A stretch of DNA of 64,000 nt, from the NCBI GenBank assembly GCA_938038445.1, contig CALHRZ010000010.1, positions 16,757-80,756 of the forward strand, given 5' to 3'. The notes beneath the pieces are model-generated. The model was not told the DNA's origin and did not search any database. It was given only the letters and a program-made list of their open reading frames with translations. The translations under genes were made by a program, and so were the position numbers. The stretch is from an uncultured bacterium. Its GTDB lineage: Bacteria; Verrucomicrobiota; Kiritimatiellia; CAIKKV01. Positions 1 to 57,406 of the stretch are shown piece by piece; position 1 is the stretch's first letter; each line of letters opens with the position of its first letter.

Positions 1-307
1 ATTTTTGGGCGCATCATTGCCGCCCATGTCAACGTCAAGGCCGATTTGCGGCGGCTTTACACGGTCGCATCGGGGCATTGTCTTGCGGGCGTTCGTCCGA
101 TTCCGGAAACCATGATTCGTCCTCCCCATGCGCCGCCGGATCCTTTTGAAGCAAATTCTTCCCCGTGATACTTGCTTTCGAGGAAATTCGGCGGCGGGGG
201 AAGAAGGTCTCAAGAAATCTTGCAGGTTCGTCGTGGGCTTTACCGTTTATGCCGGCCAGAGGACGGTGTGGACATGAAGTAATGCCGAACGATAGAGGGG
301 GCCGGGA

Positions 308-1771
308 TCAAGGTATTCCGGAATATGGGCGGGAGGATGCGTGGGAGTCCCGGTTGTTCGAGGGATTTCGGTTTTGAGGCGAGTAAAGCAGGGGAAGGGC
401 GGAAAAAAAGAGGAGGGCTACGGCACCGAGGCTGAGCCAGAGACCACGAAACGAACGGGCGCGGGCTTGCAGGGTCGCGGGCCGCCCCAGCGGCAGTACA
501 TAAACGGTGTTGTTGAAGGCGCCGTGAATGAGCACGGAATAGGAACCGGCTTCCACGACGGCGGGGCTTCCCCAGCGATTCTCCCCTTTATTGATTTTGT
601 CCCAGATCGGTCGTCCGGTGTAGTAGGAGGTGACGATGCGGCCGGTTCGTGCATCCAGCAAATGCAGGTGGTTATCCAGAGCGGCGATTAACAAATGGGG
701 GCGTCCCTCGAGGTGGAAGAACGCTGGGGCAGAGTAGATTTCTCCCCCCAGTGCGCGGCGCCAGATCAAGTGGCCGTCGGCGGCGCGGAGGGCATAGACG
801 TTGTAATCGTGTGAGCCGGCGAATACGACCGGTTCGCCCTCCACGACTCCGATGCAGGCGGAGTTATCGAACCAGTTTCCGGCCATTCGTTTCCATCGTT
901 CGCGGCCGGTGGCGGCATCGAGGGCGATGAGGTTACCGAACTTGGATCCCAGGACGAGAACCGGTTTGTCGTCCTGGTCCCAGACGGCGGGCGCTCCCAT
1001 GACCTCGTGGGGCATCTGGTAAGTCCAACGCAACTGGGGGGTGGCGGTTTCGACTGTGAAACATTGCAGCAAGCCTTTTCGCGCGCAGATTGCGACGTGT
1101 GGGGTGCCGTGAATTCGGAACCCGATCGGTTCGCTGACATAGCCGCGGCTGACTTCGACACGCGCCCGGAGGGTACCGTCTTCGGGATGGAGCACATACA
1201 GCCATCCGCGTTGTTCATTGCGGGCGATCGAGCGATCGTACACAAATCCCCCCACGTAGAGGCGTTCTTCGAACAGCAGCGGTGCGGTCATTTCCGCTTC
1301 TCCGAGCGTTGGCCTTGCCGGCTCTAGTTCTCGAGTCCAGAGTGTTGTACCGGTTTGGGCATCCAGAGCGTAGAGGGTTCGGTCGTTGGAAGCCAGAAAG
1401 ACTGCGAGGCGTCCGCGAATATAACCCACAGCGGGGGGTGCGACGATTTCGGCGTTGGTCATCCGCCGCCAGAGGATGCGGGTGTTGACAAGGTCGAGAG
1501 CGTGGAGGGTTTGGTCATATCCCCCCAGGAAGGCTATGGGTCGGCCGTCGAGCATTGCGAGCGCGGGGGATGCCCAGACCGTCTGGCCGGGTTTGTAGCG
1601 TTGTTTTGCTTTCCATTCGTAATGCCATTCGGGGATTTCGATGGGATGGTTCGACTGCATGGTTGCGTCTCCTGCAGCGGACCGGCGTGCGGCGGGCCAT
1701 GGGTCTTCGGGGCTTGCCGGAAGAACGGTAGGGATGCAGAGGGCGATCGGGAGGAGGAGGGTCAACCGCAT
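308..1771 (-). CDS. Secreted PQQ-like beta-propeller repeat protein (BamB/PQQ_2-type repeats)
   Basis: The translation has repeated motifs (YALDAQTGTTLWTRELE, LYVLHPEDGTLRARVEV, VYALRAADGHLIWRRALGG) typical of PQQ-enzyme-like beta-propeller blades. The start was trimmed to the ATG at 1771 (MRLTLLLPIALCIP..., signal-peptide-like); this overlaps the upstream gene stop (1762-1764) by 10 nt. It is the last gene of the minus-strand operon. Confidence 0.6.
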   Translation of the reverse strand: MRLTLLLPIALCIPTVLPASPEDPWPAARRSAAGDATMQSNHPIEIPEWHYEWKAKQRYKPGQTVWASPALAMLDGRPIAFLGGYDQTLHALDLVNTRILWRRMTNAEIVAPPAVGYIRGRLAVFLASNDRTLYALDAQTGTTLWTRELEPARPTLGEAEMTAPLLFEERLYVGGFVYDRSIARNEQRGWLYVLHPEDGTLRARVEVSRGYVSEPIGFRIHGTPHVAICARKGLLQCFTVETATPQLRWTYQMPHEVMGAPAVWDQDDKPVLVLGSKFGNLIALDAATGRERWKRMAGNWFDNSACIGVVEGEPVVFAGSHDYNVYALRAADGHLIWRRALGGEIYSAPAFFHLEGRPHLLIAALDNHLHLLDARTGRIVTSYYTGRPIWDKINKGENRWGSPAVVEAGSYSVLIHGAFNNTVYVLPLGRPATLQARARSFRGLWLSLGAVALLFFSALPLLYSPQNRNPSNNRDSHASSRPYSGIP

Positions 1772-2826
1772 GGGCGATTCCAATCGTCCACGACCGTCAA
1801 AGCGTTTTGGGGGCAGCGATCGACGCATTTCATGCAGAAATGGCATTCGGCGGGTTCGATATGACCGTTGTGAACGGATTCCACACCGCAGACGCGGTCG
1901 CAAGCGCCGCAGGAGACGCATCGGGAGGGGTCATGCACGATGGTTCGGACGCTGCATCGCCCCGCCCATGCGATTGCAGCCCGCCAGGGGCAGAGGTACC
2001 GGCACCAGACGTGGGGGATCAGAAGAGCGGCGAGAATGACCATGCCGGTTGAAAGCAGCGAGGCGGGGTCGTACACCTTGGCGAAGCCGAGATGGACGGG
2101 AGAGGTCACACGGAGGCTGAGGAAGGATGCGGCGGTTACCAAGCCGAAAGAGACCCAGCGGAGCCTGCGTAAGGGCCGGTCCCAGCGGGCCGTGTTCCAC
2201 GTGACGAGCAGCGTGATCAGAACGAGGACTTCGGACCAATAGATGGAGGCATCTTCGATAAAAAAGAGCCGGGTAACACTGAGGCGGATCATCCAGAGAA
2301 TGAACACGGCCATCAAGACGAGGGCGCCGGCGAAGGCGAGACGGGAGAACGGCCATCCCTGCTCTTTACGCCGGAGGTTCCATCGAGCCGTGAGGGTCCC
2401 GATCCACTCTTGGAGTGCTCCGGTGGGGCAAATCCAGCCGCAGAAGGCGGGTCCGAACAGCATGGAGGTGGTCAGGATGACGGCGGGAACGGAGCAGTAG
2501 TACAGGGCGACGATATTCTCTCGGCCGATTTCGGTTAGTCCGCGATGAAAGTTGCGGATCATGCCGAAGACGCCGAGACAGGTGAAGACCACGAAGATGA
2601 AGACGATCACACCGAGGATCTGGTTGAACATCCGCCATCGCTGGCGATGGCGGGGGGGGAAGAGAATGGGAAGGATAGCGAGAAGGCCGAGTGCCAGGAT
2701 GGTGAGGAGTTCGACGTAACTGCCCTCCATGCCGAGGAGTGCGCGTTCGACGATTTTGATATTGCCCGTTGCGTCTGAGAGGAAGGTTTCCAGCCGATCG
2801 AATGCCGAAGAGGGACCTGTGTTCAT
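1762..2826 (-). CDS. Membrane polyferredoxin, NapH/MauN/CcoG-like 4Fe-4S binding protein
   Basis: Multiple TM segments carry CGWICP and CRYLCP motifs. The C-terminus has two ferredoxin-type clusters (CVSCGACDRVCG ... CHFCMKCVDRCP). The start at ATG 2826 overlaps the upstream ABC ATPase stop (ATGA at 2823-2827). Confidence 0.6.
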   Translation of the reverse strand: MNTGPSSAFDRLETFLSDATGNIKIVERALLGMEGSYVELLTILALGLLAILPILFPPRHRQRWRMFNQILGVIVFIFVVFTCLGVFGMIRNFHRGLTEIGRENIVALYYCSVPAVILTTSMLFGPAFCGWICPTGALQEWIGTLTARWNLRRKEQGWPFSRLAFAGALVLMAVFILWMIRLSVTRLFFIEDASIYWSEVLVLITLLVTWNTARWDRPLRRLRWVSFGLVTAASFLSLRVTSPVHLGFAKVYDPASLLSTGMVILAALLIPHVWCRYLCPWRAAIAWAGRCSVRTIVHDPSRCVSCGACDRVCGVESVHNGHIEPAECHFCMKCVDRCPQNALTVVDDWNRPCG

Positions 2827-3827
2827 GGAGCAGTCTCCTGGCCGAAAAGGTGGAGGTGTTGGGGGTCCCAGCGAACGGAGACGCGGGCGCCCGAAACCAC
2901 GTAATCGGGAAGGGGTTTTCCGAGGTGGGCGATCCATCGCCGATTGGAACCAAGCGAAAGTTCGACTTCATGGAAGGCACCGCGGTCGCGGCAGGCCAGG
3001 ATGGTGGCAAGGCATCCTGTTTGGGGGTTGGGAGAGTCCAGAAGGAGATGTTCCGGGCGGAGCATGGCCAAGGTATCGTTCGGGCAACCGAATTCCCGGG
3101 CGGGGCAAACGTTTTCCGCGCCGAGGAATCGGGCGATTTCGGGGTTGGCCGGGTGGTGGAAGAGTTCCTCGACTGGGGCGAGCTGCCCGAGGCGGCCGTG
3201 AAGGAGAACGCCGCACAGACCGTTAAGGGTCCAAGCTTCCTCGCGGTCGTGTGTAACATGGATGGTGGCGGTTCCCAATTCTTCGTGAACCAGGGTCAGG
3301 CATTCGTGAAGTTCGCGTCGCGAGTTGGGGTCCAACATGCCGAGGGGTTCGTCGAGGAGGAGGAGTTGGGGCTCGATTGCGAGGGCGCGCGCGAGGGCGA
3401 GTCGTCGGCCTTCGCCGCCGGAGAGGAGGCCGGCGCGGTAATGGGCACGGTGCGTGAGGCGGAAAAGGTCGAGAAAGCGGCGGATTCGGGCAAGGCGGTC
3501 GGTTTGGGAGAGGGGGAGGAAGCGGAGTCCGAACGCGATATTTTCCTGCACGGTGAGATGGGGAAAGAGATCATTGGCCTGGGCGACGTAGGCCATCTGA
3601 CGCTGTTCCGGCGGAAGCCGTCCGATGGGGCGGCCGTCGAGTCGGATGGCGGTAGGAGGGGAGCGATAGACCCCGGCGAGGAAGCGGAGCAGGGTCGTCT
3701 TTCCGCAGCCGGAGGGGCCGAGCAATACGAGCCATGCTCGGGCCGGCAGTTCGAAGGAGATGGGACCGAAATGAAATTCGCCCAGTTGTGCTTCCAGTTC
3801 GTGCACTTCCAGGAGGGGGACGCTCAT
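2823..3827 (-). CDS. ABC transporter ATP-binding protein, molybdate/tungstate/sulfate type with C-terminal TOBE-like domain
   Basis: Walker A GPSGCGKTT, signature LSGGEGRRLALARAL and Walker B LLLLDEP are present. The C-terminal ~100 aa resemble a TOBE/ModE-type oxoanion-binding domain. The start ATG (3825-3827) overlaps the permease stop (3824-3826) as ATGA. Confidence 0.7.
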   Translation of the reverse strand: MSVPLLEVHELEAQLGEFHFGPISFELPARAWLVLLGPSGCGKTTLLRFLAGVYRSPPTAIRLDGRPIGRLPPEQRQMAYVAQANDLFPHLTVQENIAFGLRFLPLSQTDRLARIRRFLDLFRLTHRAHYRAGLLSGGEGRRLALARALAIEPQLLLLDEPLGMLDPNSRRELHECLTLVHEELGTATIHVTHDREEAWTLNGLCGVLLHGRLGQLAPVEELFHHPANPEIARFLGAENVCPAREFGCPNDTLAMLRPEHLLLDSPNPQTGCLATILACRDRGAFHEVELSLGSNRRWIAHLGKPLPDYVVSGARVSVRWDPQHLHLFGQETAP

Positions 3828-5194
3828 GGGGAGTCTATTCTCCAGTCATGCAAGGTGGGGATACGGCGGGCGGCGTATTGGAGCAGAAAGAAAAGGGCAA
3901 GTGAGGCGATCAGGAGAAGGGTCACGAAAGGGGTTGTTTCCACCAGTCCTTGCCGTTCGAAACGATAGAAGATTGCGATGGGAGCCACGGGAGGATCGGC
4001 GGTCATGAAGTAGACGGCGCCGAATTCCCCTGCGGCCCGCGCCCAGGCGAGAACGGCGGCAAGGAATAGACCGCGGCGGGCAAGGGGAAGGACGAGAAAC
4101 CGGAACGCCCCCCAGGCATTGGCCCCGAGGTGGCGGGCGGCCAGTTCGAGGTCGGGTGGGACGGCATCGAAAGCCGCAATCGCGGGTTTCACCAGAAAGG
4201 GAAACGCGGTGAACATCTGGGCGATTACGATCCCGGCGACGCTTCCGTCCAGGGCGACACCCCATCGTGATTCGAGCCAAGCGCCGAGGGGTTGGGTCCG
4301 GCTGAAAACGGAGAGGAGGGCGATTCCGGCGGCGGACTGGGGAATGATGATGGGGACATCCATGAGGGCGAGGACGAGGGTTTTGCCGCGAAACGTCAGG
4401 CGGCTGAGGCCGTATGCGAGTGGAATGCCTAGGAGGGCAAGGCCGAGTGTGGAGAGGCAGGCGGTTCCGGCGGTCAGGAGAATCGCGTGGCGGGTTTCTG
4501 CCCGTTCCAATTCGACGGCGAGAGTTGCGGTGGACTGGCTGAGGAGGAGGACCAGGACGGGGAGAAGGACCAGGGCCAACGCGGCAAGTCCGATTCCCAG
4601 GCCGAGCAGAGCGGCGGGATTAGAGGGATGGGCGTGGGCGGTCAGTATGGAGCGGAGAAGAAGGGCCAATAGGATTGCGGATTCCCAGGCGTAGGGCTGG
4701 AAAAGGGTAAAGGCGAGGACGAGGATCCAGAACCATGCGAGGAGGCGGAAATCGCGTCCGGTAGCGCACAACCCCATTACGGCAAGGAGAAAAAGCGGTT
4801 CCGCATGAGGCAGACGGACAATGAAGAGATAAAAGAGCGCCAGGTAGCTCAGGGCGAAAACTATTCCGTAGCGTAGGGGGCGCTGTTCGAAAATGTTCCA
4901 AGCCACATAGACCGTGAGGAGGCTGACGAGAAGCAAGGCGCCACTGGTCAGCGAATCGGGCGCCAACCGATGACCGACAAGAGCATGGGCGGCATTCAGG
5001 AACAGTACGGCGCTTCCCATGAGTTGTGGGATCTGACGGCGTGCCATCCCAACGGACAAAAGGCCGTTGAGCGCAAGGAGTCCGAGGCTGAACGGTTCGA
5101 GGGGATCGAGCCGGCCGGAGGTTCCCAGAGCCAAATGGCCCAGAAGGTGAGCGCCGAGCAATAGGAAAGGTAGCCATGAAAGAAAAGAATTCAT
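3824..5194 (-). CDS. ABC transporter permease (ModB/CysTW/TupB-type) fused to an extra N-terminal ~200-aa polytopic membrane domain
   Basis: The C-terminal half has the classic EAA-loop region (AARHLGANAWGAFRFLVLPLARRGLFLAAVLAWARAAGEFGA). The N-terminal ~200 aa are additional hydrophobic helices. A strong RBS (GGAGGGGA) precedes the ATG at 5194. Confidence 0.65.
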   Translation of the reverse strand: MNSFLSWLPFLLLGAHLLGHLALGTSGRLDPLEPFSLGLLALNGLLSVGMARRQIPQLMGSAVLFLNAAHALVGHRLAPDSLTSGALLLVSLLTVYVAWNIFEQRPLRYGIVFALSYLALFYLFIVRLPHAEPLFLLAVMGLCATGRDFRLLAWFWILVLAFTLFQPYAWESAILLALLLRSILTAHAHPSNPAALLGLGIGLAALALVLLPVLVLLLSQSTATLAVELERAETRHAILLTAGTACLSTLGLALLGIPLAYGLSRLTFRGKTLVLALMDVPIIIPQSAAGIALLSVFSRTQPLGAWLESRWGVALDGSVAGIVIAQMFTAFPFLVKPAIAAFDAVPPDLELAARHLGANAWGAFRFLVLPLARRGLFLAAVLAWARAAGEFGAVYFMTADPPVAPIAIFYRFERQGLVETTPFVTLLLIASLALFFLLQYAARRIPTLHDWRIDSP

Positions 5195-6070
5195 TTACGG
5201 TTCCCCTCCGTAGGCGGCGATATCCGCGAATTGGGCGTAATCTTGGCGGCTGCCAAAAAAGACGGGCTTCAGCCGGCGGAATCCTCGATCGGTCCATTCC
5301 ACGCGGTCGGGGCTGATGAGGTAGCGCAAAAGGGATTCTGCTTCGCGGGGATGGGCGCTATCGGGGGGAATGGTGGCCGCGAATCGGATGGGGGCGGTTT
5401 CGTCCGATTCGGTTGAGAAGTTGATGGCGGAGTCGAGTGCGATGAACCGAATTTCATGCATCAGGGCAGCGGAGCGGAACAGGAAGGCATAATCTACATC
5501 GCCGGTTTTCAGACGGGCGGCCACCGTGCCGATATCGTCGGCGACTAGGAAGGTTTTTTCGCGCAATTCTTCTGCAAGCCCGGGATAGCCTTTTTGTTCC
5601 ATTCGTTTCCACAAGCGGAGTGTATAAAGGCCGGCGGGGCTTTGAATTTCGTCGGTTCGGGCCAGTCGGATACCGGGGGCGCGGAGTGCGGCGACCCAAT
5701 CACGTTCTGCCAGATCGGGATTGGGGGCGCGAAGACCGACGGCCAGGACCATTTCGTCGGAAAGCCAGACGAGATGCCAGCGGAAACGGCCGCGGCCCGT
5801 GGTAGCGAAAAAGGAGGGATCGGCCGACAGGAGGAGATCGCACGGGCGGCCGAGTTCCGTATAGCGACGGATGAGATTTCCGCTGCTGCCGGCTTCGGCG
5901 CGGATGCGGAGGCCGAGGTGTTGGGCCGCTGTGGGATAGAGATCTCGCAAGACAGGCTCGAAAACGGCAGCGTGGAACACTTGCAGAGTGGGAGGGGGTG
6001 GGGTACGGGAACAGCCGGGACACAGAACGGCCGAAACGATCCAAAAGAGGAGCAGTTGGAATCCTTTCAT
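5195..6070 (-). CDS. Periplasmic substrate-binding protein, molybdate/tungstate (ModA/WtpA-like) family
   Basis: The start was trimmed to the ATG at 6070 (MKGFQLLLFWIVSAV..., signal peptide). VFHAA..., EAGSSGNLIRRYTELG and LLLSADPSFF resemble the WtpA/ModA-type PBP family. The start overlaps the upstream stop (ATGA at 6067-6070). Confidence 0.6.
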   Translation of the reverse strand: MKGFQLLLFWIVSAVLCPGCSRTPPPPTLQVFHAAVFEPVLRDLYPTAAQHLGLRIRAEAGSSGNLIRRYTELGRPCDLLLSADPSFFATTGRGRFRWHLVWLSDEMVLAVGLRAPNPDLAERDWVAALRAPGIRLARTDEIQSPAGLYTLRLWKRMEQKGYPGLAEELREKTFLVADDIGTVAARLKTGDVDYAFLFRSAALMHEIRFIALDSAINFSTESDETAPIRFAATIPPDSAHPREAESLLRYLISPDRVEWTDRGFRRLKPVFFGSRQDYAQFADIAAYGGEP

Positions 6071-6867
6071 GGGAGGGGCGAACGTTCCTTGGGGTTTTGG
6101 AACACGGCCAGTGCGGCTCCCAGGGCGACGACGGTCTGGGGCGAAGGTGGGACCCAGATGCGGACGCCGAGATTTTCCTCCAGTGTATCGAGCAACGCGC
6201 GGTTGAGGGCGCCGCCGCCGACGAAGGCGAGAATTTCGCGGGGACCGATTCGGCGCACCATCGCGGCGATGCGATCTGCGATGGCCTGATGGGCGGCGGC
6301 TGCGATATCGGCCTTTGCGACATTCCGGGCGAGGAGTGAGACGACTTCGCTTTCCGCGAAGACGGCGCACGTGGAGTTCATATGGATGGGGACGGTGGAG
6401 GAGCGAGCGGCCTGAATAAATTCCGGCATTGAAAGATCGAGCTTTCGTGCCAGCATTTCAAGGAAACGACCTGTTCCAGCCGCGCATTTGTCGTTCATGG
6501 CAAAATCCTGCACGTCGCCCGTGTCGGCCAGAGCAATGACTTTGGTATCCTGGCCGCCGAGGTCAAGGACGGTTCGGATGGGGCCATGCGGGGAACCGAG
6601 AAATCGGGCACCGAGGGCCGAGGCCCGGATTTCGGTAATGATGAGATCACCCATTCCGGCTAGACGCCGACCGTACCCTGTGACGGCGACGGCCCCGACG
6701 GCTTGAGGGGAGAGATTGGCCTGGGCCAATACTCCGTCCAGCACCTGGCGGGCGCTATCGGCGGGCAGGATGGCGTTTGAGAGGACGACGCCGGCGATCA
6801 GCCGGGTGCCGTCGAAGAGAACGGCTTTGCTGGTGGTGGATCCGATATCGAGCCCGGCGGCGATCAT
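6067..6867 (-). CDS. BadF/BadG/BcrA/BcrD-type ATPase (CoA-substrate-specific enzyme activase, HgdC-like)
   Basis: The N-terminus MIAAGLDIGSTTSKAVLFDG is the acetate/sugar-kinase-fold signature of HgdC/activator ATPases. The later VGGGALN motif also fits. The start overlaps the upstream stop (ATGA at 6864-6867). Confidence 0.7.
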   Translation of the reverse strand: MIAAGLDIGSTTSKAVLFDGTRLIAGVVLSNAILPADSARQVLDGVLAQANLSPQAVGAVAVTGYGRRLAGMGDLIITEIRASALGARFLGSPHGPIRTVLDLGGQDTKVIALADTGDVQDFAMNDKCAAGTGRFLEMLARKLDLSMPEFIQAARSSTVPIHMNSTCAVFAESEVVSLLARNVAKADIAAAAHQAIADRIAAMVRRIGPREILAFVGGGALNRALLDTLEENLGVRIWVPPSPQTVVALGAALAVFQNPKERSPLP

Positions 6868-8114
6868 CTCAGAGTCTCCAAAAAGGCTTCGACCCGTACT
6901 CGGAGCTGTTCGGTGTCTTCGAGACTGTAGTCGGTCCGAAGGGTGAGGAGAGGGATGCCACGGGCCTTGAGGACCCGTTCCAGCCGACCGGTTTCGAGGT
7001 CGAAGGGTTGACAGAGGCGGAGAGCGTAATTGACGACGCCGTGGGCGTTGGAGCGTTCGACGAGATCAAGGATTCGATTGAAACGGTTGATGGAGTCAGT
7101 GAAACAAGGGCAAGGGGATCCGAAGACCGATCGGGCCGCGAGCGCTCGGAGGAGTGCATTCCAGCCGGATTCATCGGTGAGGGCGGGATCCGCGCAGGAT
7201 TGGATACCGGTACAGAGCGTATCGGCTACGAGGTCGGCGCCGGATTCTTCGAGGACTTGGATGGGTTTGAAATTGGGCCAGACGATGGGGGCGCCGGTCA
7301 AAATCAGTCGGGGGCGGAGCCGTTTGCGTTCCGGTTGGAAGGATTCGGCGTAGCGTACGGCTTTTTCGGCTTCCGGTAGCCATTCGGCAAGGGGGGTGGG
7401 AGAGAAGAGCGAAGACTGAATGATGAGGAACGCGTCCTGCAGACTCATGGATTCGGGGTGGGCGATCCGAGCCTCTTGGAGGCGGCGCGACAGGGCGGCG
7501 CGTTGGTTTGAATCATTGATCGCCAGTTGCAAGGCATCTCGTCGGATCCGGCGGCCGGTTCGTCTTGCGATGAAATCGGCAAGGCGATTATATTCATCGG
7601 TCATCGCGTGGGCGTAACGAGTCGGATCGGGGTTGGGAGGGAGCGACAGACTGAAGACCGTCTTGAAATCGGCCAACCATTCGATGAGTTTTCGTTTGGG
7701 GTCACAGGAGGCGGGTACGACCCAGGCGTTGCAGGAATTGGGGAGAGGGTTTCGGCTGGACACGAGGCCGAGCGTTGCCTTGGCGAGTGGGCAGATATCG
7801 CCGACGACGAGTTCTTCACCGGCCAGGAGTGCGGCGCTGCTGCCACAATCGAAGCGGAGGGTTTCGGCGTTGACGGCCCAGAAAAGTTCCGGAGGGGCGA
7901 AATTACAGAGGAGGCCGAACCGGCGAGTTTGAGGGGGAGAAAGGGAGGGGTTGAGGAGTTGTTGTTCGAACCAGGCGATGTTGGGTGGGCGCCGAGGGAT
8001 CTCGTGGAGTCGGCGGCGTTGTTCTTCCAGAACCGCGTGTTGTTTACGGCGGAGGGAAAGCCGGTCGGACCAGATTGGGGGAAGTTGATAGGGATGGTCG
8101 GGTGGGGACGTCAT
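6864..8114 (-). CDS. 2-hydroxyacyl-CoA dehydratase family protein (HgdB/BcrC/double-cubane-cluster-protein-like)
   Basis: The start was trimmed to ATG 8114 (MTSPPDHPYQ...), preceded by a GGAG RBS and overlapping the upstream polyferredoxin stop (ATGA at 8111-8114). Conserved Cys residues (DTLCTGIQSCADP; CPCF) and the overall pattern resemble PF06050 family members that pair with HgdC-like activators. Confidence 0.5.
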   Translation of the reverse strand: MTSPPDHPYQLPPIWSDRLSLRRKQHAVLEEQRRRLHEIPRRPPNIAWFEQQLLNPSLSPPQTRRFGLLCNFAPPELFWAVNAETLRFDCGSSAALLAGEELVVGDICPLAKATLGLVSSRNPLPNSCNAWVVPASCDPKRKLIEWLADFKTVFSLSLPPNPDPTRYAHAMTDEYNRLADFIARRTGRRIRRDALQLAINDSNQRAALSRRLQEARIAHPESMSLQDAFLIIQSSLFSPTPLAEWLPEAEKAVRYAESFQPERKRLRPRLILTGAPIVWPNFKPIQVLEESGADLVADTLCTGIQSCADPALTDESGWNALLRALAARSVFGSPCPCFTDSINRFNRILDLVERSNAHGVVNYALRLCQPFDLETGRLERVLKARGIPLLTLRTDYSLEDTEQLRVRVEAFLETLR

Positions 8115-9616
8115 GGCCACTGGCTCCGAGCGATGGGGCGGCCGGCAAACTCGGCGCGCAAGCAATCGTTTTGGGGGCACCATTCCACGCATTTGAGACA
8201 GTAGAGGCAGGCGGGTTGGGCGACATCTTCTGTTTTCATTTCGGAAGCGACGGTTGAGATATCCATGGGGCAGACTTCGCGACAAATTCCGCAGCGATTG
8301 CAGCGACGAGGTTGTTTGCGGAGGGAGAAGAGTCCCCCTCGGTTGAAGGGGGTAGCGAGCAATCCCATCGGGCAAAAACGGCAGAAAAAGCGGCGCGAGG
8401 CAGCGAAGGAAACGAGGAAAAAAAGCGTGAGAAGAGGGGCGACGATGAGGAAGAAGCCTCCGAGCCATTCCCGTCCTGGCAGGGGAGGGTATGCGGTGAG
8501 TCCGCGGGTTGCGACGGGGCATAGTTGTTGGGCTGGGCAGATTTTGCAGAAGGGGTAGAGAGGAATTTTACATCCGAGGAAGCGGCCATCGGCGTCCAAT
8601 CGTGGGATTGCGGCGGCGAGAAGGAGGCTGAAAGAACCGAAGGAGAGGCCGGCGCCCCAGGCGATCCTTTGACTTCGGGGTGAGGGTTTCCAATGGGGGA
8701 GTCGGAGAAGACGGCGGACGAGGTCGAATCCATCGCCCAAGGTTGCAAGGGGGCAAATCCATCCACACCACCAGCGGCCGGCAAGGAAGAGGGCGATGGT
8801 CACCGAGGCGATTGCTCCCAGAATGATGGCGAGGAGGCCGGTTTCATTCCGTGCGTTGCGGACGATCGTCCGAAAATCGAATTGGAAGAGACGTTGGAGA
8901 AGTTCCATGGGGCAGCCTTGGACGTAGCCGCCGTCTGCGCTGAATCGGCAAGGCGCGGACGGGATGTACGTGAGGCGATCGGGATCGTGAAGCGCGGGAA
9001 TCGTTTCAGAGAAGGCCACGACGTCGTTGCGTAATTGAGCCCGGCGGGCCATGGCGTGTTGCCAATCCGAAGGAGAACGGCGGAAAAGAAAGCCTCCGCC
9101 GAGGAGAAGAATTAGTGCGGTCAAACGGACAGAGGTGCGGAAGGCACGGAGGGGAACGAAGGGGTGGAGGAGAATGAGAATGGAGACGAGGCCGAGGAAC
9201 AGAGGGATAGGAGCGGAAGGCGCTCCCACGAAGCCTCCATCGGGAGGACGGCTCTGTTGCTGCGTTCCGACGTGGAGAATGAAACCGAGGAGAAGGAAGC
9301 AGGGCCAAACGAGAAAAATGCGGTATGCCGGGCGACCGTGCAGAAGAAGCGCAGGCAGGATGAGAAGAAAGAAGGCAGGGACGAGAGGATGCTGAAGGCG
9401 ATAAAGCCAGCGGGACCACCCGGGGTGAGTTTGGGCGAACCCATGGACCATAACGGACAAGAGGAAAACCCAGACAGGCACCATCCATCGAAGAAGGGGT
9501 GAGGAAGAACGGGAGGACGCCTTGAGCGCAAGGGAAGTTGCGAGGGCTACCAGGAGAGATTCCAGGGGGCGGAACCAAAATGCACCGCTTTGAAGAATGG
9601 CATTCAGCGGGTCCAT
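8111..9616 (-). CDS. Membrane polyferredoxin, NapH/MauN-like 4Fe-4S binding protein (second copy)
   Basis: The polytopic membrane protein carries a CGWICPLATLGD motif. Its C-terminus has ferredoxin motifs (CNRCGICREVCP ... CLYCLKCVEWCP). Confidence 0.6.
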   Translation of the reverse strand: MDPLNAILQSGAFWFRPLESLLVALATSLALKASSRSSSPLLRWMVPVWVFLLSVMVHGFAQTHPGWSRWLYRLQHPLVPAFFLLILPALLLHGRPAYRIFLVWPCFLLLGFILHVGTQQQSRPPDGGFVGAPSAPIPLFLGLVSILILLHPFVPLRAFRTSVRLTALILLLGGGFLFRRSPSDWQHAMARRAQLRNDVVAFSETIPALHDPDRLTYIPSAPCRFSADGGYVQGCPMELLQRLFQFDFRTIVRNARNETGLLAIILGAIASVTIALFLAGRWWCGWICPLATLGDGFDLVRRLLRLPHWKPSPRSQRIAWGAGLSFGSFSLLLAAAIPRLDADGRFLGCKIPLYPFCKICPAQQLCPVATRGLTAYPPLPGREWLGGFFLIVAPLLTLFFLVSFAASRRFFCRFCPMGLLATPFNRGGLFSLRKQPRRCNRCGICREVCPMDISTVASEMKTEDVAQPACLYCLKCVEWCPQNDCLRAEFAGRPIARSQWP

Positions 9617-10242
9617 ATCTTATTGATCGCAAGGAGTGCAAACACAACGGCCATGGGGAGGAGATACCACCAGAAATAATAATCGGCGCGGCTGTCCGCG
9701 ATGATGGAAATGGTGCCGAGCCGGGTTTCCTCGCCCGATGGTTCCGAACGGGTCAATGAGAAACGGCGGACTTTTTGAGCGGAAACCGGCGAGAAGGACA
9801 ATCGAGCAACGGTCGGATTGGAGCGTTGAAGAGCGTTCCCCCATTCAATGCGGAGGGGTCCCGCGTCGAGAGATTCCGGTGGCAATTCAAGGGCGAACGT
9901 CAGGCCGACGATTTCCCCGAATTCGCGGGTGAGGGTATTGGTTTCAATTACGAGGGGCAGAGGGCGGCCGAGTCCATCCGTTGCACCGATCCGATCGAGG
10001 GATCCGACAGATAGATGGGGAGGTTGGAAGCGGCCGTACACGATCCAACCCTGAGGGTTATGAGGAACGAACGAGGGGGTCTCCGACAGAGGGATTTCTT
10101 CGGGAGGTTCGGAGGGGGGCGGGTCAAGTTCCAAGAGGTGGATCGAGATTGACGTAGCCGATGTGTCGGCGGGACAAGATGGGCAGGAAAAGAAGAAAAG
10201 GAACGGGAGAGCGCACAGGAGGGCAAGACGGGGCATGGGCAT
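9604..10242 (-). CDS. Hypothetical secreted/membrane-anchored protein
   Basis: It has an N-terminal signal-like segment (MPMPRLALLCALPFLFFFSCPSCPA) and a C-terminal TM anchor (YYFWWYLLPMAVVFALLAINKIW). It overlaps the polyferredoxin start by 13 nt, so it is co-transcribed. Confidence 0.35.
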   Translation of the reverse strand: MPMPRLALLCALPFLFFFSCPSCPADTSATSISIHLLELDPPPSEPPEEIPLSETPSFVPHNPQGWIVYGRFQPPHLSVGSLDRIGATDGLGRPLPLVIETNTLTREFGEIVGLTFALELPPESLDAGPLRIEWGNALQRSNPTVARLSFSPVSAQKVRRFSLTRSEPSGEETRLGTISIIADSRADYYFWWYLLPMAVVFALLAINKIWTR

Positions 10243-10248
10243 ACGGCG

Positions 10249-11187
10249 TCAATCCGGAAGAAGCAGGCGGGCGAACACCAGCGGGTTTTGGTAGGAGGCT
10301 CCGTTTCCGAGCCAGTAGGAGAGGTGTGCGTCGCGTTGACGGGCCACATTGAGGAGGAAGGACTTTTGGATACCGAGGGGCTGAAGGGGAAGGGTCAGCT
10401 CGATGCCGTCGGGTCCTTTGACGGCCCGGGCTCCGGCGGGTGCGTTCTGAAGATCGGCGTTGGCCAGGTTAAGTAGGATCGAAGTCGGGGGAAGGTCCAT
10501 GTCGGAGCTAAGCAAGAGGGTCAGGACATCCGATTCCGCACTGGCGGTTTCGGGTGTGGGGATCATGGCGTAGAGCGTTTCGGCGTCTGCGGCGAGGCGG
10601 AGTCGGGTGCCGCAATTGGAGGGTTGCACCTCCACGTAGCGGCGGCTTTTGGAATCTTGGGAAAAGCTGGTGCAGAGCCAGGCATCGGCCCATTCGTCGC
10701 GGGTGATGGAGCCGTCAATTCGAAGCGAAGGGACTTTGCGGGGAAGCGTGGAGACGTTTATGGCGCGATCGAGTTCGACGGTTTTGAATTCCATGCGAGG
10801 TTGGCGGCCGTTGAAGAGGCGTAAAGCGATTTCGTAGCGGCCATCAGGCACTCCGGGTTTTCGTTTGAGGGTGACCGTGAAATACTCTTTTTTACCGCCG
10901 TGGCGGGTGGTTTGGAGTTGGGGGAAGGACCGCCATTCGGGAGAGGGAGTGACGGTGCTTTCGAAGTCGGGGCTAATCACTTCGAGCCGGATATCGGCGA
11001 TCGCCCGGTCCATGGTATTGAGGAGATGAACTCGGAAGGAAGCTTCCTGATGGATCCGGAGTTGTCCGTCGCGGATATCGACCTTGACGGCCAGATTGTC
11101 GCGGGCTTGTTCGAAAACATCGTTGCAGAGGTGGGACTGAACGTTCGCGAGGGGGAGGAAGAGTACGAGAAGGACGATTCGCTTCAT
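10249..11187 (-). CDS. Hypothetical secreted protein, possible CBM9/DOMON-like C-terminal domain
   Basis: The start was trimmed to ATG 11187 (MKRIVLLVLFLPLANV, signal peptide) with an AAGGA RBS. The motif IDGSITRDEWADAW resembles the CBM9/DOMON-like fold. There is a 7-nt gap to the next gene. Confidence 0.35.
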   Translation of the reverse strand: MKRIVLLVLFLPLANVQSHLCNDVFEQARDNLAVKVDIRDGQLRIHQEASFRVHLLNTMDRAIADIRLEVISPDFESTVTPSPEWRSFPQLQTTRHGGKKEYFTVTLKRKPGVPDGRYEIALRLFNGRQPRMEFKTVELDRAINVSTLPRKVPSLRIDGSITRDEWADAWLCTSFSQDSKSRRYVEVQPSNCGTRLRLAADAETLYAMIPTPETASAESDVLTLLLSSDMDLPPTSILLNLANADLQNAPAGARAVKGPDGIELTLPLQPLGIQKSFLLNVARQRDAHLSYWLGNGASYQNPLVFARLLLPD

Positions 11188-11259
11188 CGAGAGGATTCCT
11201 TGCACAGAGGGGCTTTTATTTATCAGTCTACCGAAAGAGGCGGCGGAAGTCAGGAACAA

Positions 11260-12621
11260 TTATTCATAAAACACATCCCCTTGCTCATTGAGGCGGACGT
11301 GGTAACGTCGCAGAAGATCGGGACCGGGTTCGAAGGGATCGCGGAGTCGGACGAGACGGGTATGAAGCAGGTGGTGCAATTCGGCGATTTGCTCTGGCGG
11401 GGCAGTGGGGAGGAGGTTATGGAGTTGAAAGGGGTCGTGTTGCACATCGTAGAGGAACCACGGGCCATCCGGACGTTCGGCATAGGCGTAGCGGGCGGTT
11501 CGCAAGCCACGGAATTCGAGCACGCGGGGGGGGCTCCGGCGGAGCTCGTGGAAGGGGCAGTAACAGGAGAGGAGGGCGGGTGTATTCGGTTCGTCGGGGG
11601 TGGTGCCAGTAAGGAGGGGGGCGAGGTTACGGCCTTCGGTTTGGGGCGGGATAGGGAGGGCCAAGAGACCGAGAAGGGTCGGCATGATATCCGGGGCGTC
11701 AATTGGGAACTGAACGGTACGGGGTTTGGCACCGAGTTTTTCCGTCCAGCGCAGGAGGAAGGGAACGCGGATGGACTCTTCGAAAGGCCACTGTTTTCTT
11801 AAGAGCCCCTGGGCGCCGAGCATATCGCCGTGATCGGAGGTAAAGACGACGAGGGTGTGATCAGCGATCCCTTGTTCCTCCAGGGTATCGAGAAGGCGGC
11901 CGAAGCATGCATCGAGCGCCGCGCCGTGGGCGTAGTAGCCCGCGAGGTCGTTGCGGGCTATTTCGGCCGTTTCCAGAGGCACGTTGGGGGAGAGTTGGAT
12001 TTTTTCGGGAGAAAAAAGCGATTGATATTGTTCGGGGGCGGTGTGGTAGGGGTTATGAGGGGGACCCCAGGAAAGAAAGAGGGCAAAAGGGCGGGGAGCA
12101 TGCGCGCGGGAGGCGATTTCGGCGCAGGCCAGGTCGGTTTGAGCCTTGGCGTCATATCCTTTCCAGAGAAGGGGTTCAGGGGCATCGGCATAGTACAGGG
12201 AATGGTTGTAGTCGTGGGTGCATTCGAAGCCGCGCCAGATCCGGAAGCCGAGGCGATCTTCGGGAGGGACGTAACGGGTTCTTCCGCCGCCGTGGAGATG
12301 CCATTTGCCGATCCAAAGCGTATCGTAATCCGCGGCGTTGAGATGGTCGGCCAGCGAGCCGCCGGGCACATGTCGGAGAGGCTGATCGTTGACGATGATC
12401 CCGTGGGCAAGGGGGTATCGGCCGGTGAGGAGAGAGGCGCGGTATGGGCTGCAGACCGGACAACCGCTCACCGCGTTGGGAAAAGCGATTGCTTGTGCGG
12501 CGAAGGCATCGGTGCGGGGCGTTTTCGCATTTGGATCTCCGGCGTATCCGAAGGCTTGGGCGCGCCATTGGTCGGAGAAGACGAAGAGGATATGCGGGCG
12601 ACGAAATGCAACATGTGGCAT
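11260..12621 (-). CDS. Sulfatase (arylsulfatase family)
   Basis: HILFVFSDQW ... CPVCSPYRASLLTGRYP carries the formylglycine C-x-P-x-R motif. The start was taken at ATG 12621. No obvious signal peptide is present. Confidence 0.7.
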   Translation of the reverse strand: MPHVAFRRPHILFVFSDQWRAQAFGYAGDPNAKTPRTDAFAAQAIAFPNAVSGCPVCSPYRASLLTGRYPLAHGIIVNDQPLRHVPGGSLADHLNAADYDTLWIGKWHLHGGGRTRYVPPEDRLGFRIWRGFECTHDYNHSLYYADAPEPLLWKGYDAKAQTDLACAEIASRAHAPRPFALFLSWGPPHNPYHTAPEQYQSLFSPEKIQLSPNVPLETAEIARNDLAGYYAHGAALDACFGRLLDTLEEQGIADHTLVVFTSDHGDMLGAQGLLRKQWPFEESIRVPFLLRWTEKLGAKPRTVQFPIDAPDIMPTLLGLLALPIPPQTEGRNLAPLLTGTTPDEPNTPALLSCYCPFHELRRSPPRVLEFRGLRTARYAYAERPDGPWFLYDVQHDPFQLHNLLPTAPPEQIAELHHLLHTRLVRLRDPFEPGPDLLRRYHVRLNEQGDVFYE

Positions 12622-12849
12622 GAACGTATTCTGCCAAAAAGGGGGCAGAGAACGGAAGAAAAACGTCGGAGTAAGACTTGCGCTGGCGTCTAACACCTCC
12701 GAGGGGATTTCTTTGAAGGGCGGGAGCAGATCAGTTGGAGTGTTGAGGGCTGGAGGGGTTGAGGGGGCGGCGTGAGGGAAGAGCGGATGCCAGCGGCGAT
12801 TGCGATGGAAGGTGGCCAAAGCGAGGAAGTCCTCATCGGCTTCGAGGCT

Positions 12850-13700
12850 TCAGAACTGGCCGGTGCGTTTGAAGCGCAGTTGGAATTGGCCGCAAGTTGA
12901 TTTCACGGCGCCGGGGCCATTGGGCTGGCCGAGACGCTTGCCTCTTTTGTTGTCCATGCGCTTCTTGTTGTCGGCGAGGTGGTTGGTTTCGTCCTGCGGG
13001 GTTTTCTTCTGCTTGGCGGTCGGGCGCGCGAGGCTGTCGCGCATCAGTTCGATGGGCTCGATGACGTCGATCGCGCCGTTCTGTTGGCGCTCCAGCCAGC
13101 GTAGCAGGGGCCGGAGCCATCGTCTGGCTTGCGCGGCATCATCGCCATAGATCGCAAGGGCGATGGTCCAGAGGTGTTGCTGGGTGGGCCAGTCGTCCAG
13201 GCGGTGCATGGCGCCCTTGAAGCGGTTCTGCGCCAGTTTCCACATCCAGATGGCCCCATCGGCCAGGAGCAGAACCGTCTGCGCCTGCAGCAGGCCGCGG
13301 AGGATCGCCTCGGTATTAAAGCTGCGCCTCGCCCAATGCCAGAGGGAGAACGCTTCCCCTTTCTGCCGTAGTAGTCGTCGAGTCGGTCCCCTGGCGGCGC
13401 GCTTCCCGATGGATCGTCGCTTGGCCCAACTGTGCTTCCCGTTGACCCGCCGCGCATTTTGCCCAGGTCGATCAGGTGCGTCTTGCCGCCCTTGTTCAAG
13501 GAGAAGTACGGCTGCTTGTTGCGCCCGCCAATCACCACCACGCTGCCGCGCATGACTACGTCAAGTCCGCTCATCTTCCGCTGGAGTTCGCGGAGCCGGG
13601 ACTTGAGGACCTGCAGGTTCTGCGGCTCCATGCGTTTTGGACTCCTCGGCATGGCTCCGCCTTTTTTCATGCGAGACGAGGCTCCTGGCATATACTCATG
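12850..13700 (-). pseudogene. Degenerate transposase-like gene (frameshifted mobile-element remnant)
   Basis: Protein-like segments are split over at least two minus-strand frames. The first has an N-terminal DUF6788-like segment (MSGLDVVMRGSVVVIGGRNKQPYFSLNKGGKTHLIDL). The other has a transposase-like core (EAFSLWHWARRSFNTEAILRGLLQAQTVLLLADGAIWMWKLAQNRF...). No intact ORF is present. An adjacent low-GC patch lies at ~13700-13860. Confidence 0.35.
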
Positions 13701-25176: not shown

Positions 25177-25253
25177 TGGCGTACCTGGCAGGAGTCGAAC
25201 CTGCAACCCTCAGATCCGAAGTCTGATGCTCTGTCCAATTGAGCTACAGGTAC
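25177..25253 (-). tRNA. tRNA-Arg (anticodon TCG)
   Basis: The 77-nt cloverleaf (minus strand) is GTACCTG TA GCTC AATTGGACA GAGC A TCAGA CTTCGGA TCTGA GGGTT GCAGG TTCGACT CCTGC CAGGTAC G CCA. A20 in the D-loop is an Arg identity element. The CCA end is encoded. Confidence 0.75.
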
Positions 25254-25276: not shown

Positions 25277-25353
25277 TGGCGTACCTGGCAGGAGTCGAAC
25301 CTGCAACCCTCAGATCCGTAGTCTGATGCTCTGTCCAATTGAGCTACAGGTAC
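25277..25353 (-). tRNA. tRNA-Arg (anticodon ACG)
   Basis: It is identical to the neighbouring tRNA except for position 34 (anticodon loop CTACGGA). It lies 23 nt upstream (in transcription order) of the TCG copy. Confidence 0.75.
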
Positions 25354-37780: not shown

Positions 37781-38808
37781 AGAGGCGCTTTTTCTTTGTT
37801 TGGATTTTATCGGCGGTTGGGCTTATGACCGGCTGTTTGCCTTCTCGACCTCGGCTTGTGGTTCGCGAATATCCGGGCATGGGGACCTTGGGCAGTGTGA
37901 CGGCGTTGTCGGACGAGGAGGCTTTTTCGTGGGCAGCCCGGTGCGCTCAGATCACGCGGGAATGGGAAGAGCGGCTCAGTGTTTTTCTTCCGAATTCCGA
38001 CTTGGCGCGGATCAATGCTGCCGCCGGCAAAGGAGTGGTGGCAATTTCTCCCGAGACACGCTGGGTACTGGAACATGCGATTCGTCTTGCCCGAGAGAGC
38101 GGAGGTGCTTTCGATCCCACGGTGGGTCCTTTAATGGATTTGTGGGGATTCCGTCGCCAGGGTTTGGCACGCAAACCCATGTTGGATGAGATTGCGGCGT
38201 CACGTGAACGGGTGGGTTATCACAAGCTTGTGATTTCAACGGAAGGCTGTGGGTTGGAACGGGAGGGGATGGCATTGGATTTAGGGGGGATTGGCAAAGG
38301 GGTTGCGGTGGACCGCTGCTGGGAAGAGTTACGAAGGGAAGCCAAAGGGCGGCCGTTTCTGGTCAATCTGGGAGGCAACATTCGCGCGTCGGGACGTTTG
38401 CCGACGGGGCGGGAGTGGTCCATCGGCATCCGGGATCCGTTCGATCCTGGCCGGATTGTCGCCACGATTTCGTTGGAAGATGGAAAAGCGGTGGCGACCT
38501 CGGGTCACTACGAACGGTTTGTGGTGCTGGACGGAGAGCGCTGGGCACACATTATGGATCCCCGGACGGGTATGCCGGTGCGGGGGATGGCTTCTGTGAC
38601 GGTAGTGGCCGACAGTGCGGAGGATGCCGATGGTCTCTCAACCACGCTTTTTGTGATGGGGCGTGAGGAAGGAGAGGCATTTCTGCGACAGACGGGAAGA
38701 AATGCTGCTGTTTTGTACATTCCTGACCAGAAGCCTCTTCATCTGTTTCCCAACGCTTCCATGAAAAAAATCATAAAAATTGACAGCCGCGATCCTAGCC
38801 TATTATAA
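37777..38808 (+). CDS. apbE: FAD:protein FMN transferase ApbE (lipoprotein)
   Basis: The GTG start has a GGAGGA RBS. A lipobox-like LMTGC is present. ApbE motifs match (AFDPTVGPLMDLWGF; DLGGIGKGVAVD; TSGHYERF). Confidence 0.75.
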   Translation: MKRRFFFVWILSAVGLMTGCLPSRPRLVVREYPGMGTLGSVTALSDEEAFSWAARCAQITREWEERLSVFLPNSDLARINAAAGKGVVAISPETRWVLEHAIRLARESGGAFDPTVGPLMDLWGFRRQGLARKPMLDEIAASRERVGYHKLVISTEGCGLEREGMALDLGGIGKGVAVDRCWEELRREAKGRPFLVNLGGNIRASGRLPTGREWSIGIRDPFDPGRIVATISLEDGKAVATSGHYERFVVLDGERWAHIMDPRTGMPVRGMASVTVVADSAEDADGLSTTLFVMGREEGEAFLRQTGRNAAVLYIPDQKPLHLFPNASMKKIIKIDSRDPSLL

Positions 38809-38873
38809 TGTAACTATGTTTTTGGTTTGCGTGTGAATACTATTTAGACAAACACGCAGATACGGAGGGTGCC

Positions 38874-57390: not shown

Positions 57391-57406
57391 AAGGACGGGC
57401 GTTTCG

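Follow-up and report, generated by a model that had tools for sequence, protein, structure and literature searches.

A double-cubane-type reductase pair as the probable core of a ten-gene operon conserved across several bacterial phyla

The gene cluster and its two central genes

The window analysed here, a 64-kb stretch of contig CALHRZ010000010.1 from an uncultured bacterium of the Kiritimatiellia (assembly GCA_938038445.1), has all genes of its first 13 kb on the minus strand. Among these, an HgdC-like activase and a PF06050-like protein are encoded side by side at 6067-8114, a pair for which the coordinates and domain calls of a first-pass annotation proved correct (matches to PF01869, TIGR00241 and PF06050). 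In Pfam scans, the open reading frame (ORF) at 6067-6867 (minus strand, 266 aa) was found to match PF01869 (BcrAD_BadFG) with an E-value of 6.6e-52, and that at 6864-8114 (minus strand, 416 aa) to match PF06050 (HGD-D) over the full profile with an E-value of 5e-68. The latter gene starts with the ATG at 8114, as supported by an identical 416-aa database protein (P0001) and by 120 listed homologues of about 415 aa; a longer ORF at 6864-8522, regarded as a high-GC artefact, was rejected as the true gene. The two genes are translationally coupled, with an overlap of 4 bp. As argued below, their products probably form a low-potential, ATP-dependent reductase of the type known from the double-cubane cluster protein (DCCP) and its reductase (DCCP-R), at the core of a conserved ten-gene operon, rather than a 2-hydroxyacyl-CoA dehydratase or a benzoyl-CoA reductase (BCR). 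The ten genes, together with the evidence on which each description rests, are the following.

10249-11187, minus strand: unk336, exported protein of a family without a name (312 aa; AlphaFold2 fold and conserved residues)
9604-10242, minus strand: unk212, exported protein of a family without a name (212 aa; hydropathy, conserved in 26/31 loci)
8111-9616, minus strand: NapH-like membrane polyferredoxin 1 (501 aa; Pfam, NCBIfam and hydropathy)
6864-8114, minus strand: DCCP-like PF06050 protein, putative [8Fe-9S] reductase component (416 aa; Pfam, NCBIfam, Protein Data Bank (PDB), AlphaFold2/Foldseek and tree)
6067-6867, minus strand: ATP-dependent activase of the HgdC/HadI/DCCP-R type (266 aa; PF01869, TIGR00241 and PDB)
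5195-6070, minus strand: SBP_bac_11 substrate-binding protein (SBP) of an ABC importer (291 aa; Pfam, 98 bits)
3824-5194, minus strand: ABC permease with a WtpB/ModB/CysT-like core (456 aa; WtpB model, 165.5 bits)
2823-3827, minus strand: WtpC-like ABC ATPase with ABC_tran and TOBE_2 domains (334 aa; Pfam and WtpC model, 219.2 bits)
1762-2826, minus strand: NapH/MauN/NosH-like membrane polyferredoxin 2 (354 aa; start at 2826 inferred from a 4-bp overlap)
308-1771, minus strand: exported PQQ-like (BamB-like) β-propeller (487 aa; identical 487-aa database protein P0251)

From unk336 to the propeller, the nine junctions measure +6, -13, -4, -4, -4, 0, -4, -4 and -10 bp, a tight packing of the kind that a single operon would show. 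Independent gene calls in public assemblies confirmed the protein lengths for 8 of the 10 genes. A promoter and terminator scan of positions 1-13000 was uninformative, with counts at or below the shuffled expectation, while Rfam at gathering thresholds returned, for the window and four complete related loci, two tRNAs only and no riboswitch. Two tandem tRNA genes lie at 25180-25253 and 25280-25353 (minus strand), between a gene for a xylose-isomerase-like TIM barrel and uvrB. A sulfatase gene (11260-12819, minus strand) ends 72 bp upstream of unk336, and the same arrangement is seen in two contigs with identical cluster genes (L001 and L002); it was left out of the unit because it is absent or on the other strand in other lineages. 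Along this region, as along the rest of the window, GC skew on the plus strand is strongly positive in every 2-kb bin (0.09-0.30), including the first 13 kb with their minus-strand genes. The magnitude is unusually high for a bacterial chromosome, and AT skew changes sign with gene orientation.

Family placement of the PF06050 protein and its activase

Sequence and fold comparisons both rank DCCP first among the relatives of the PF06050 protein. Its top sequence matches in the PDB are structures of the Carboxydothermus DCCP (7YYL and 6ENO; E = 1e-41 with the single sequence and 1e-71 with the family profile), the profile alignment covering residues 35-421 of 421 of that protein, and the next profile matches are MbdN (2e-25), BzdN (1e-23) and HadC (1e-16). 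The best NCBIfam model is NF040772 ('double-cubane-cluster-containing anaerobic reductase') with 234.2 bits, for a curated cutoff of 350, and the BcrC, BzdN and HadC models reach 45-47 bits. An AlphaFold2 model of the protein (pLDDT 89.9, pTM 0.90) was compared with known structures using Foldseek, which gave TM-scores of 0.83-0.87 with DCCP chains over 412-422 columns, 0.75 with HadC, BzdN and MbdN (β/γ subunits) and 0.64-0.69 with the α-type catalytic subunits of CoA enzymes (0.65-0.69 at 13% identity with 3o3m_A).

The cysteines of the protein follow the pattern C70-x19-C90-x17-C108-x28-C137-x163-C301-x33-C335-x32-C368. This contains in full the seven-Cys motif published for DCCPs by Jeoung and Dobbek, CX19CX18-19CX29CX166-170CX32-34CX32C, which comprises the six ligands of the [8Fe-9S] cluster and one nearby Cys (PMC7317905), with three spacers lying 1-3 residues off the published ranges. 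Residues 70, 108, 137, 301, 335 and 368 are thus the predicted ligands and Cys90 the seventh residue. In an alignment of 39 homologues, an inspection that the first-pass annotation had called for, all six ligand positions are invariant and C90 is conserved in at least 90%; 36 of 39 clade members have the complete motif, as do most distant relatives. Two further cysteines, 128 and 337, are invariant in this clade in particular and lie near ligand positions, and Cys128 is found in 54 of 54 members of the wider clade (Ala in the Carboxydothermus DCCP, Ser in YjiM). However, the pattern alone does not discriminate between DCCP and BCR, since the same six ligand positions were found by alignment in BzdN of class I BCR, where they hold an [8Fe-9S] cluster that serves as an electron relay and not as the active site (PMC11971306). 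The assignment to DCCP was therefore decided by the tree, the single-gene architecture and the full-length fold.

The tree (neighbour-joining, 413 trimmed columns, Kimura distances, 100 bootstraps) was built from the window protein, 38 clade members, 14 distant relatives, the Carboxydothermus DCCP, Escherichia coli YjiM (MG1655), BzdN, MbdN and HadC, the last three standing as proxies for HgdA/B, FldB/C and BcrB/C, which were not included. The seven-Cys proteins (the window clade, the Carboxydothermus DCCP and YjiM) split from BzdN/MbdN/HadC in 99 of 100 bootstraps, the window clade is monophyletic in 100% with a long stem, and together with the distant relatives it excludes the Carboxydothermus DCCP and YjiM in 87%. 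The phylogeny proposed by the first-pass annotation thus groups the protein with DCCP and YjiM, and clustering with bona fide dehydratases, which that annotation had considered, is not seen. Its suggestion that the pair resembles DCCP or YjiL-YjiM-type reductases is likewise borne out by the seven-Cys motif and by the ranking of sequences and folds. Since the protein scores below the NF040772 cutoff and falls outside the group of the Carboxydothermus DCCP and YjiM, it is classed as a relative of the DCCP type rather than an NF040772 equivalog; judged from its sequence, it is a member of a distinct DCCP-type clade. In a HMMER search of 1.84 billion cluster representatives, 1982 matches were obtained at E ≤ 1e-3 and 115 at E ≤ 1e-30, and the window clade is narrow since only about seven representatives exceed 300 bits.

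The activase scores 235 bits with TIGR00241 ('acyl-CoA dehydratase activase'), above the cutoff of 125.4, and its PDB sequence matches are HadI (1e-50), HgdC (2e-48) and DCCP-R (8e-40). It has exactly two cysteines, C128 and C167, which we take to occupy the positions of the ligands of the subunit-bridging [4Fe-4S] cluster of HgdC. No second PF06050 gene and no second activase gene was found in the 64-kb window by tblastn, so that there is one gene of each kind, which is the arrangement of DCCP/DCCP-R and neither that of the dehydratases (two PF06050 genes and one activase) nor that of class I BCR (two and two). Taken together, sequence, motif, predicted fold and tree make it very probable that the pair is an ATP-dependent two-component reductase built like DCCP/DCCP-R.

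A different reading of the same genes is that they encode a true CoA-ester enzyme, be it a 2-hydroxyacyl-CoA dehydratase or an aryl-CoA reductase, with the genes for its CoA-transferase or ligase partners located elsewhere. PF06050 and an activase are indeed common to such enzymes, the listed homologues carry the public names 'BcrC/BadD/HgdB' or '2-hydroxyacyl-CoA dehydratase', and a CoA substrate has been considered possible for short DCCPs such as YjiM (PMC7317905). The window protein, however, has the long form, matching the Carboxydothermus DCCP from residue 35 and including the N-terminal helices that narrow the channel there. HadC was rejected as an identification (NF052456, 45 bits for a cutoff of 700), as was class I BCR (TIGR02263, 46.6 bits for 421; TIGR03190, 45.2 for 454; TIGR03192, 139.6 for 380); the BcrC, BzdN and HadC equivalog models at 45-47 bits face cutoffs of 421-700. 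To these scores are added the gene count and the bootstrap separation given above. The genomic setting speaks against a CoA-ester enzyme as well: Pfam scans of about 35 large ORFs revealed no CoA-transferase, acyl-CoA dehydrogenase or enoyl-CoA hydratase in the window, and all-against-all clustering of the remaining ORFs revealed no CoA-related family recurring in the 52 related loci described below. The absence of a CoA-metabolism context around the pair had been pointed out in the first-pass annotation, and CoA-transferase genes are lacking among the ORFs scanned across the whole 64 kb. The sole CoA-related gene, which could be counted in favour of this reading, is a PaaK-like AMP-binding ligase (AMP-binding_C_2; 54308-55645, plus strand) 46 kb off and beside DNA polymerase I. 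A 2-Hacid_dh gene at 60795-62378, 53 kb from the pair, encodes a SerA-like protein with an ACT domain. A CoA-ester enzyme is thus largely refuted and the least credible of the readings weighed here. If so, the public names of the homologues are misleading in many metagenome-assembled genomes of the Planctomycetes-Verrucomicrobia-Chlamydiae (PVC) group, where they could be misread as evidence of aromatic or amino-acid fermentation.

The remainder of the window, in which a sulfatase, a DUF2961 protein, a GH20-like protein and a giant surface protein are encoded, has the look of a PVC bacterium that degrades glycans. At 37777-49619 (plus strand), an ApbE flavin-transferase gene (37777-38808) is directly followed by a 3581-aa ORF with PATR, Calx-beta, Laminin_G_3, DUF2341, β-helix and DUF1565 domains, which looks like a giant surface or adhesin-like protein. 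The PaaK-like ligase and a URO-D-family protein (57269-58393, plus strand) are encoded near a MoxR-type AAA ATPase and a VWA protein, and are unrelated to the operon.

Conservation of the cluster and its partner proteins

Synteny was examined by searching the family profile against one genome per GTDB species, which yielded 52 loci that were six-frame translated and searched with the ten window proteins. The close clade comprises 37 loci (43-58% identity), and a locus was counted as informative for a gene when its contig reaches far enough. All ten genes are present in 16 of the 37, from Verrucomicrobiota, Kiritimatiellia, Lentisphaerae/Victivallales, Planctomycetota (including Brocadiia) and Candidatus Auribacter, and order and orientation are the same in 15 of these 16, the remaining one (L008) having the upstream three genes inverted. 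Each neighbour occurs in 67-85% of informative loci, in five or more phylum-level lineages and at 45-58% protein identity. Polyferredoxin 1 is present in 28/33 informative loci and also in distant clades, unk212 in 26/31, unk336 in 24/30, the activase, adjacent to the DCCP gene, in 26/36, the SBP in 25/34, the permease in 25/33, the ATPase in 25/32, polyferredoxin 2 in 22/30 and the β-propeller in 18/27. All-against-all ORF clustering detected no further recurrent gene family (regulators, cytochromes or CoA enzymes) around the cluster in PVC loci. The first-pass annotation had correctly stated that the pair is flanked by polyferredoxins and a transporter; it had taken this as an absence of context, whereas these genes form a conserved context of their own.

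In more distant relatives (32-38% identity; Goldbacteria, Omnitrophica, FCPU426 and Endomicrobia), genes for an unk336-like protein, a polyferredoxin, DCCP and activase remain linked. The FCPU426 genes for importer, polyferredoxin 2 and propeller form a divergent second operon on the opposite strand beside the DCCP part, suggesting that the ten-gene unit consists of two modules; the clusters of this lineage (L041:11068-12739 and L043:4956-6657) have two tandem activase genes after the DCCP gene. In an even more remote group (loci L046, L047, L048, L052 and L054, with the labels Woesearchaeota, Patescibacteria and others), DCCP and activase are found with a NapH-like or DsbD_2 membrane protein, as in the DsbD_2-type locus L046:6621-7280 or in L048, which has NapH-like proteins and two DCCP paralogues.

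Two apparent fusion proteins were found in addition. In P0374 (933 aa, L056:1016-3817), encoded downstream of a polyferredoxin-2 gene, the β-propeller of the cluster with its C-terminal transmembrane helix runs straight into a DCCP domain, and the resulting topology (propeller outside, one helix, DCCP inside) fits a membrane-spanning complex. In P0422 (677 aa, L057:680-2713), a NapH-like polyferredoxin is fused to a DCCP domain, and an activase gene and a second DCCP gene follow. Elsewhere in the wider family, DCCP is fused to its own activase, an arrangement known in the literature as 'class III', or to an FHA domain.

Could the pair nevertheless work alone, its co-location with polyferredoxins and a transporter being without functional meaning? 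Solitary DCCP genes do occur in the close clade, as detailed in the next section, and in Victivallales-type loci the activase and importer genes are located elsewhere and not adjacent to the DCCP gene. Such independence is nevertheless very improbable, in view of an order and orientation kept across phyla at about 50% identity, of overlapping start and stop codons and of the lack of other recurrent genes. It is instead likely that the two proteins act jointly with the remaining eight products of the cluster.

Both polyferredoxins combine Fer4_5 CX3CP motifs with a 2x[4Fe-4S] domain at the C-terminus. Among named families they come nearest to NapH, MauN and NosR, with scores of 45-63 bits that fall well short of the cutoffs (for the NapH model TIGR02163, 61.6 and 53.2 bits, the cutoff being 213), and no Nap, Nos or Mau genes were found in the 64-kb window. 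Polyferredoxin 1 has further conserved Cys-rich loops (APCRF..GGYVQGC and GCKIP.YPFCKxCP.Q..CP) and about seven membrane segments by a crude hydropathy count, the resulting topology of which is not relied on. Polyferredoxin 2 has two CX3CP motifs and a very strongly conserved sequence.

The importer has its best named relatives in the Wtp system without reaching the equivalog cutoffs (WtpA 62.6 bits for 355, with 57-63 bits over the WtpA models, WtpB 165.5 for 340, WtpC 219.2 for 440), and the best PDB relatives of the SBP are archaeal WtpA/ModA proteins (4e-16). Invariant residues of the SBP family include D140-E141, C77, E59, S63, R68, D78, D84, R138, R149 and D178. At its N-terminus, the permease carries an additional, conserved membrane domain of about 200 aa with conserved His, Asp and Glu motifs (HA..G..LAPD.LTSG, AE.LFLL and QPYAWE).

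Of the three exported proteins, the β-propeller has a C-terminal transmembrane anchor and matches PQQ_2 with 108 bits through generic PQQ_2/BamB-type blades only. Identification as a pyrroloquinoline quinone (PQQ) dehydrogenase or a tetrathionate hydrolase was rejected, the similarity being confined to the level of blades (TIGR03075, 48.1 bits for a cutoff of 480). By hydropathy, unk212 has an N-terminal signal-like segment and a C-terminal transmembrane anchor, and it has no Pfam or NCBIfam match. For unk336, no Pfam, NCBIfam or PDB sequence match was obtained and all 183 homologues are without a name. Its AlphaFold2 model (pLDDT 91.6) consists of an N-terminal Ig-like β-sandwich followed by a C-terminal CBM9/DOMON-like domain, in which residues W166, W292, E165, R195, R197 and N280 appear to resemble the sugar-binding site of CBM9 more than a heme site. 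Residues 16-25 contain an invariant H-L-C-N-D-V-F directly after an AxA signal-peptidase-type site, so that the mature protein may begin with His-x-Cys, and an NTMDR motif is also invariant. The His-x-Cys could be an N-terminal metal site, although AlphaFold2 models the segment as a continuation of the signal helix.

Possible function, alternatives and known systems

How the ten products might act together can be outlined by analogy with the solved DCCP/DCCP-R complex of Carboxydothermus (PMC9351452; PMC7317905). A homodimer of the activase, with one [4Fe-4S] cluster bridging its two subunits, would accept an electron and, with ATP bound, dock on the PF06050 protein. Driven by the binding and hydrolysis of ATP, this electron would pass onto an [8Fe-9S] cluster with six cysteine ligands, and reduction of a small non-CoA substrate would then take place in the cytoplasm at or near the double cubane. 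The WtpABC-like importer would bring this substrate, an oxyanion or metal species of inorganic or organometallic nature, into the cytoplasm, the NapH-like polyferredoxins would connect activase and DCCP to membrane or quinone electron flow, supplying or draining electrons, and, on the outer side of the cytoplasmic membrane, the substrate would be captured or made ready by the three exported proteins. In this outline we infer the cluster content, the ATP coupling, the direction of electron flow and the nature of the substrate. The scheme of ABC import of a small substrate followed by cytoplasmic reduction at the double cubane is put forward tentatively, as one that may well have to give way to another. 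At much the same tentative level, the ten genes might encode a membrane-bound machine, not previously described and widespread in anaerobic PVC bacteria and neighbouring candidate phyla, dedicated to the reduction of an inorganic or organometallic substrate at very low potential. In such a machine, NapH-type polyferredoxins would link the ATP-charged double-cubane reductase with its own importer and with the exported proteins.

Several observations weigh against a DCCP-type reductase operon that works in this manner. At the level of the family, the PF06050 protein misses the NF040772 cutoff and is only 28% identical to the Carboxydothermus DCCP, and a catalytic role of its cluster is not established since the double cubane is a relay in BzdN. 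In 6 of the 37 close-clade loci, the DCCP gene is alone among housekeeping genes (htpG, cysS and glycogen phosphorylase), from which it follows that physical linkage is not obligatory. All three components of the importer are far below the Wtp cutoffs, and the SBP family has Gly/Ser where WtpA has the Asp of its DDPAGY motif in the alignment, an Asp that we take to be a tungstate ligand. The invariant D140-E141 lies three to four residues upstream of that position. Finally, both fusions weigh little, since P0374 and P0422 are singletons on single short Logan contigs and could be sequencing errors merging overlapping genes.

The direction of electron flow could also be the opposite one. The double cubane would then not be the catalytic site but an ATP-charged store of low-potential electrons feeding the polyferredoxins, which would pass them across the membrane to the exported proteins for the reduction of an extracytoplasmic substrate, the importer taking up the product. 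NosR/NosH and NapGH-type proteins serve periplasmic reductases, and the three exported proteins are conserved as much as the cytoplasmic ones. The crude topology of polyferredoxin 1 would place its two Cys-rich loops opposite the ferredoxin domain, but this estimate is a hydropathy count only. The link of the more distant DCCP clade to DsbD_2-type transmembrane electron carriers and the matching out/in topology of the propeller-DCCP fusion point the same way, as does the finding that the same cluster, on the same six cysteines, is a relay or store in class I BCR (PMC11971306). However, the homodimeric Carboxydothermus DCCP reduces substrates directly (PMC7317905; PMC11971306), and no heme CXXCH, no Cu centre with enough His and no flavin motif was found in the exported proteins. 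Moreover, ATP-energised electrons that cross several Fe-S centres and a membrane would dissipate their low potential. Export of electrons is thus rather unlikely, albeit the most serious competitor of cytoplasmic reduction.

Metal or cofactor handling is a further alternative, in which molybdate, tungstate or another metal would be imported and then reduced or used for building or repairing a metallocluster, perhaps a heterometal Fe-S cluster on the DCCP scaffold. WtpA/B/C and ModA/B/C are the closest named relatives of the importer, its SBP family has the invariant Cys77 and several invariant carboxylates, and CcoG, a polyferredoxin of the type found here, is a cupric reductase. The invariant His-x-Cys at the predicted mature N-terminus of unk336, its NTMDR motif and the extra invariant Cys128 and Cys337 near the cluster ligands of the DCCP, as putative metal sites, could be read in the same sense. 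All Wtp and Mod scores are well below cutoff, however, and neither a molybdenum cofactor (Moco) enzyme, nor a Moco-biosynthesis gene, nor a Moco riboswitch was found in the window or in four related loci. Handling of a metal is accordingly an improbable function for the operon, more so than electron export, and import followed by cytoplasmic reduction is retained as the preferred, if tentative, scheme.

The enzyme type itself is known; what is new here is that the window protein belongs to a distinct clade and that the flanking genes are a conserved multi-component setting and not incidental. No description of this clade or of the ten-gene cluster was found in the literature searched, which leaves out some journals. 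The benzoyl-CoA reductase/dehydratase superfamily is considered to have its archetypes in homodimeric double-cubane proteins, which are nitrogenase-like in placing ATP-energised electrons on a large Fe-S cluster, and to our knowledge only artificial DCCP substrates, such as acetylene, azide and hydrazine, have been reported. As recently as 2025, the biological function of homodimeric DCCPs was stated to be unknown (PMC11971306). The SBP encoded in the operon has a ligand that can be determined experimentally, through which the physiological substrate of a double-cubane reductase could be approached directly. Should the ten genes indeed form a membrane-bound machine, a homodimeric DCCP would for the first time have a physiological setting, and the ligand of the SBP would directly name the class of substrate.

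Among known systems, the closest is DCCP/DCCP-R of Carboxydothermus hydrogenoformans (CHY_0487/0488; 6ENO and 7YYL), in which a single PF06050 gene is likewise located beside one HgdC-type activase gene and the protein, at 421 aa as compared with 416 aa, shares the seven-Cys motif and an N-terminal helical extension; unlike the window gene, CHY_0487 has not been described as part of a ten-gene membrane-associated operon. In E. coli, YjiM/YjiL (a 'class II' DCCP) also pairs a seven-Cys PF06050 protein with an activase, but YjiM (383 aa) is without the N-terminal extension (PMC7317905) and 26% identical to the window protein, and the neighbours of yjiM (yjiN, yjiK and mdtM) are unrelated to the operon. 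The BzdNOPQ/MbdONPQ systems resemble the predicted window pair in the ATP-driven injection of electrons through activase-type subunits and in the double cubane of BzdN. Nevertheless, class I BCR acts on CoA esters and depends on a further PF06050 subunit, the catalytic one (BzdO), and on two different ATPase subunits, whereas the window has one gene of each kind, and identity to the window protein is 22%. HadBC/HadI, HgdAB/HgdC and FldBC/FldI have the PF06050 fold and a related activase in common with the window pair, but HadBC, HgdAB and FldBC are heterodimers with [4Fe-4S] and [4Fe-5S] clusters on three cysteines per subunit and a CoA-transferase context; HadC, 19% identical to the window protein, is without three of the six ligand Cys positions.

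The other components have counterparts of their own. The Fer4_5 CX3CP motifs and 2x[4Fe-4S] domain of the two polyferredoxins are shared with NapH, NosH, NosR, MauN and CcoG, the partners of which (NapA/G, NosZ or cbb3) are not encoded in the window. Likewise, WtpABC/ModABC share with the importer the combination of an SBP_bac_11 protein, a type I permease and a TOBE ATPase, while ordinary ModB, WtpB and CysT permeases are without the N-terminal membrane domain of about 200 aa. A further system to be compared is the SAO locus (Haft and Gwadz, bioRxiv 10.1101/2022.07.06.499078), found in Clostridia and other selenocysteine users. The MerB-like SaoL, the SaoE efflux protein and the selenoprotein transporter subunits of that locus have no equivalent at the window operon, the SaoA model reaches 119 bits for a cutoff of 360, and the polyferredoxins and β-propeller of the window operon are in turn missing from the SAO locus. 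In both, however, a DCCP and its activase are linked to a dedicated ABC importer, and it is for the SAO locus that import followed by reduction has already been proposed.

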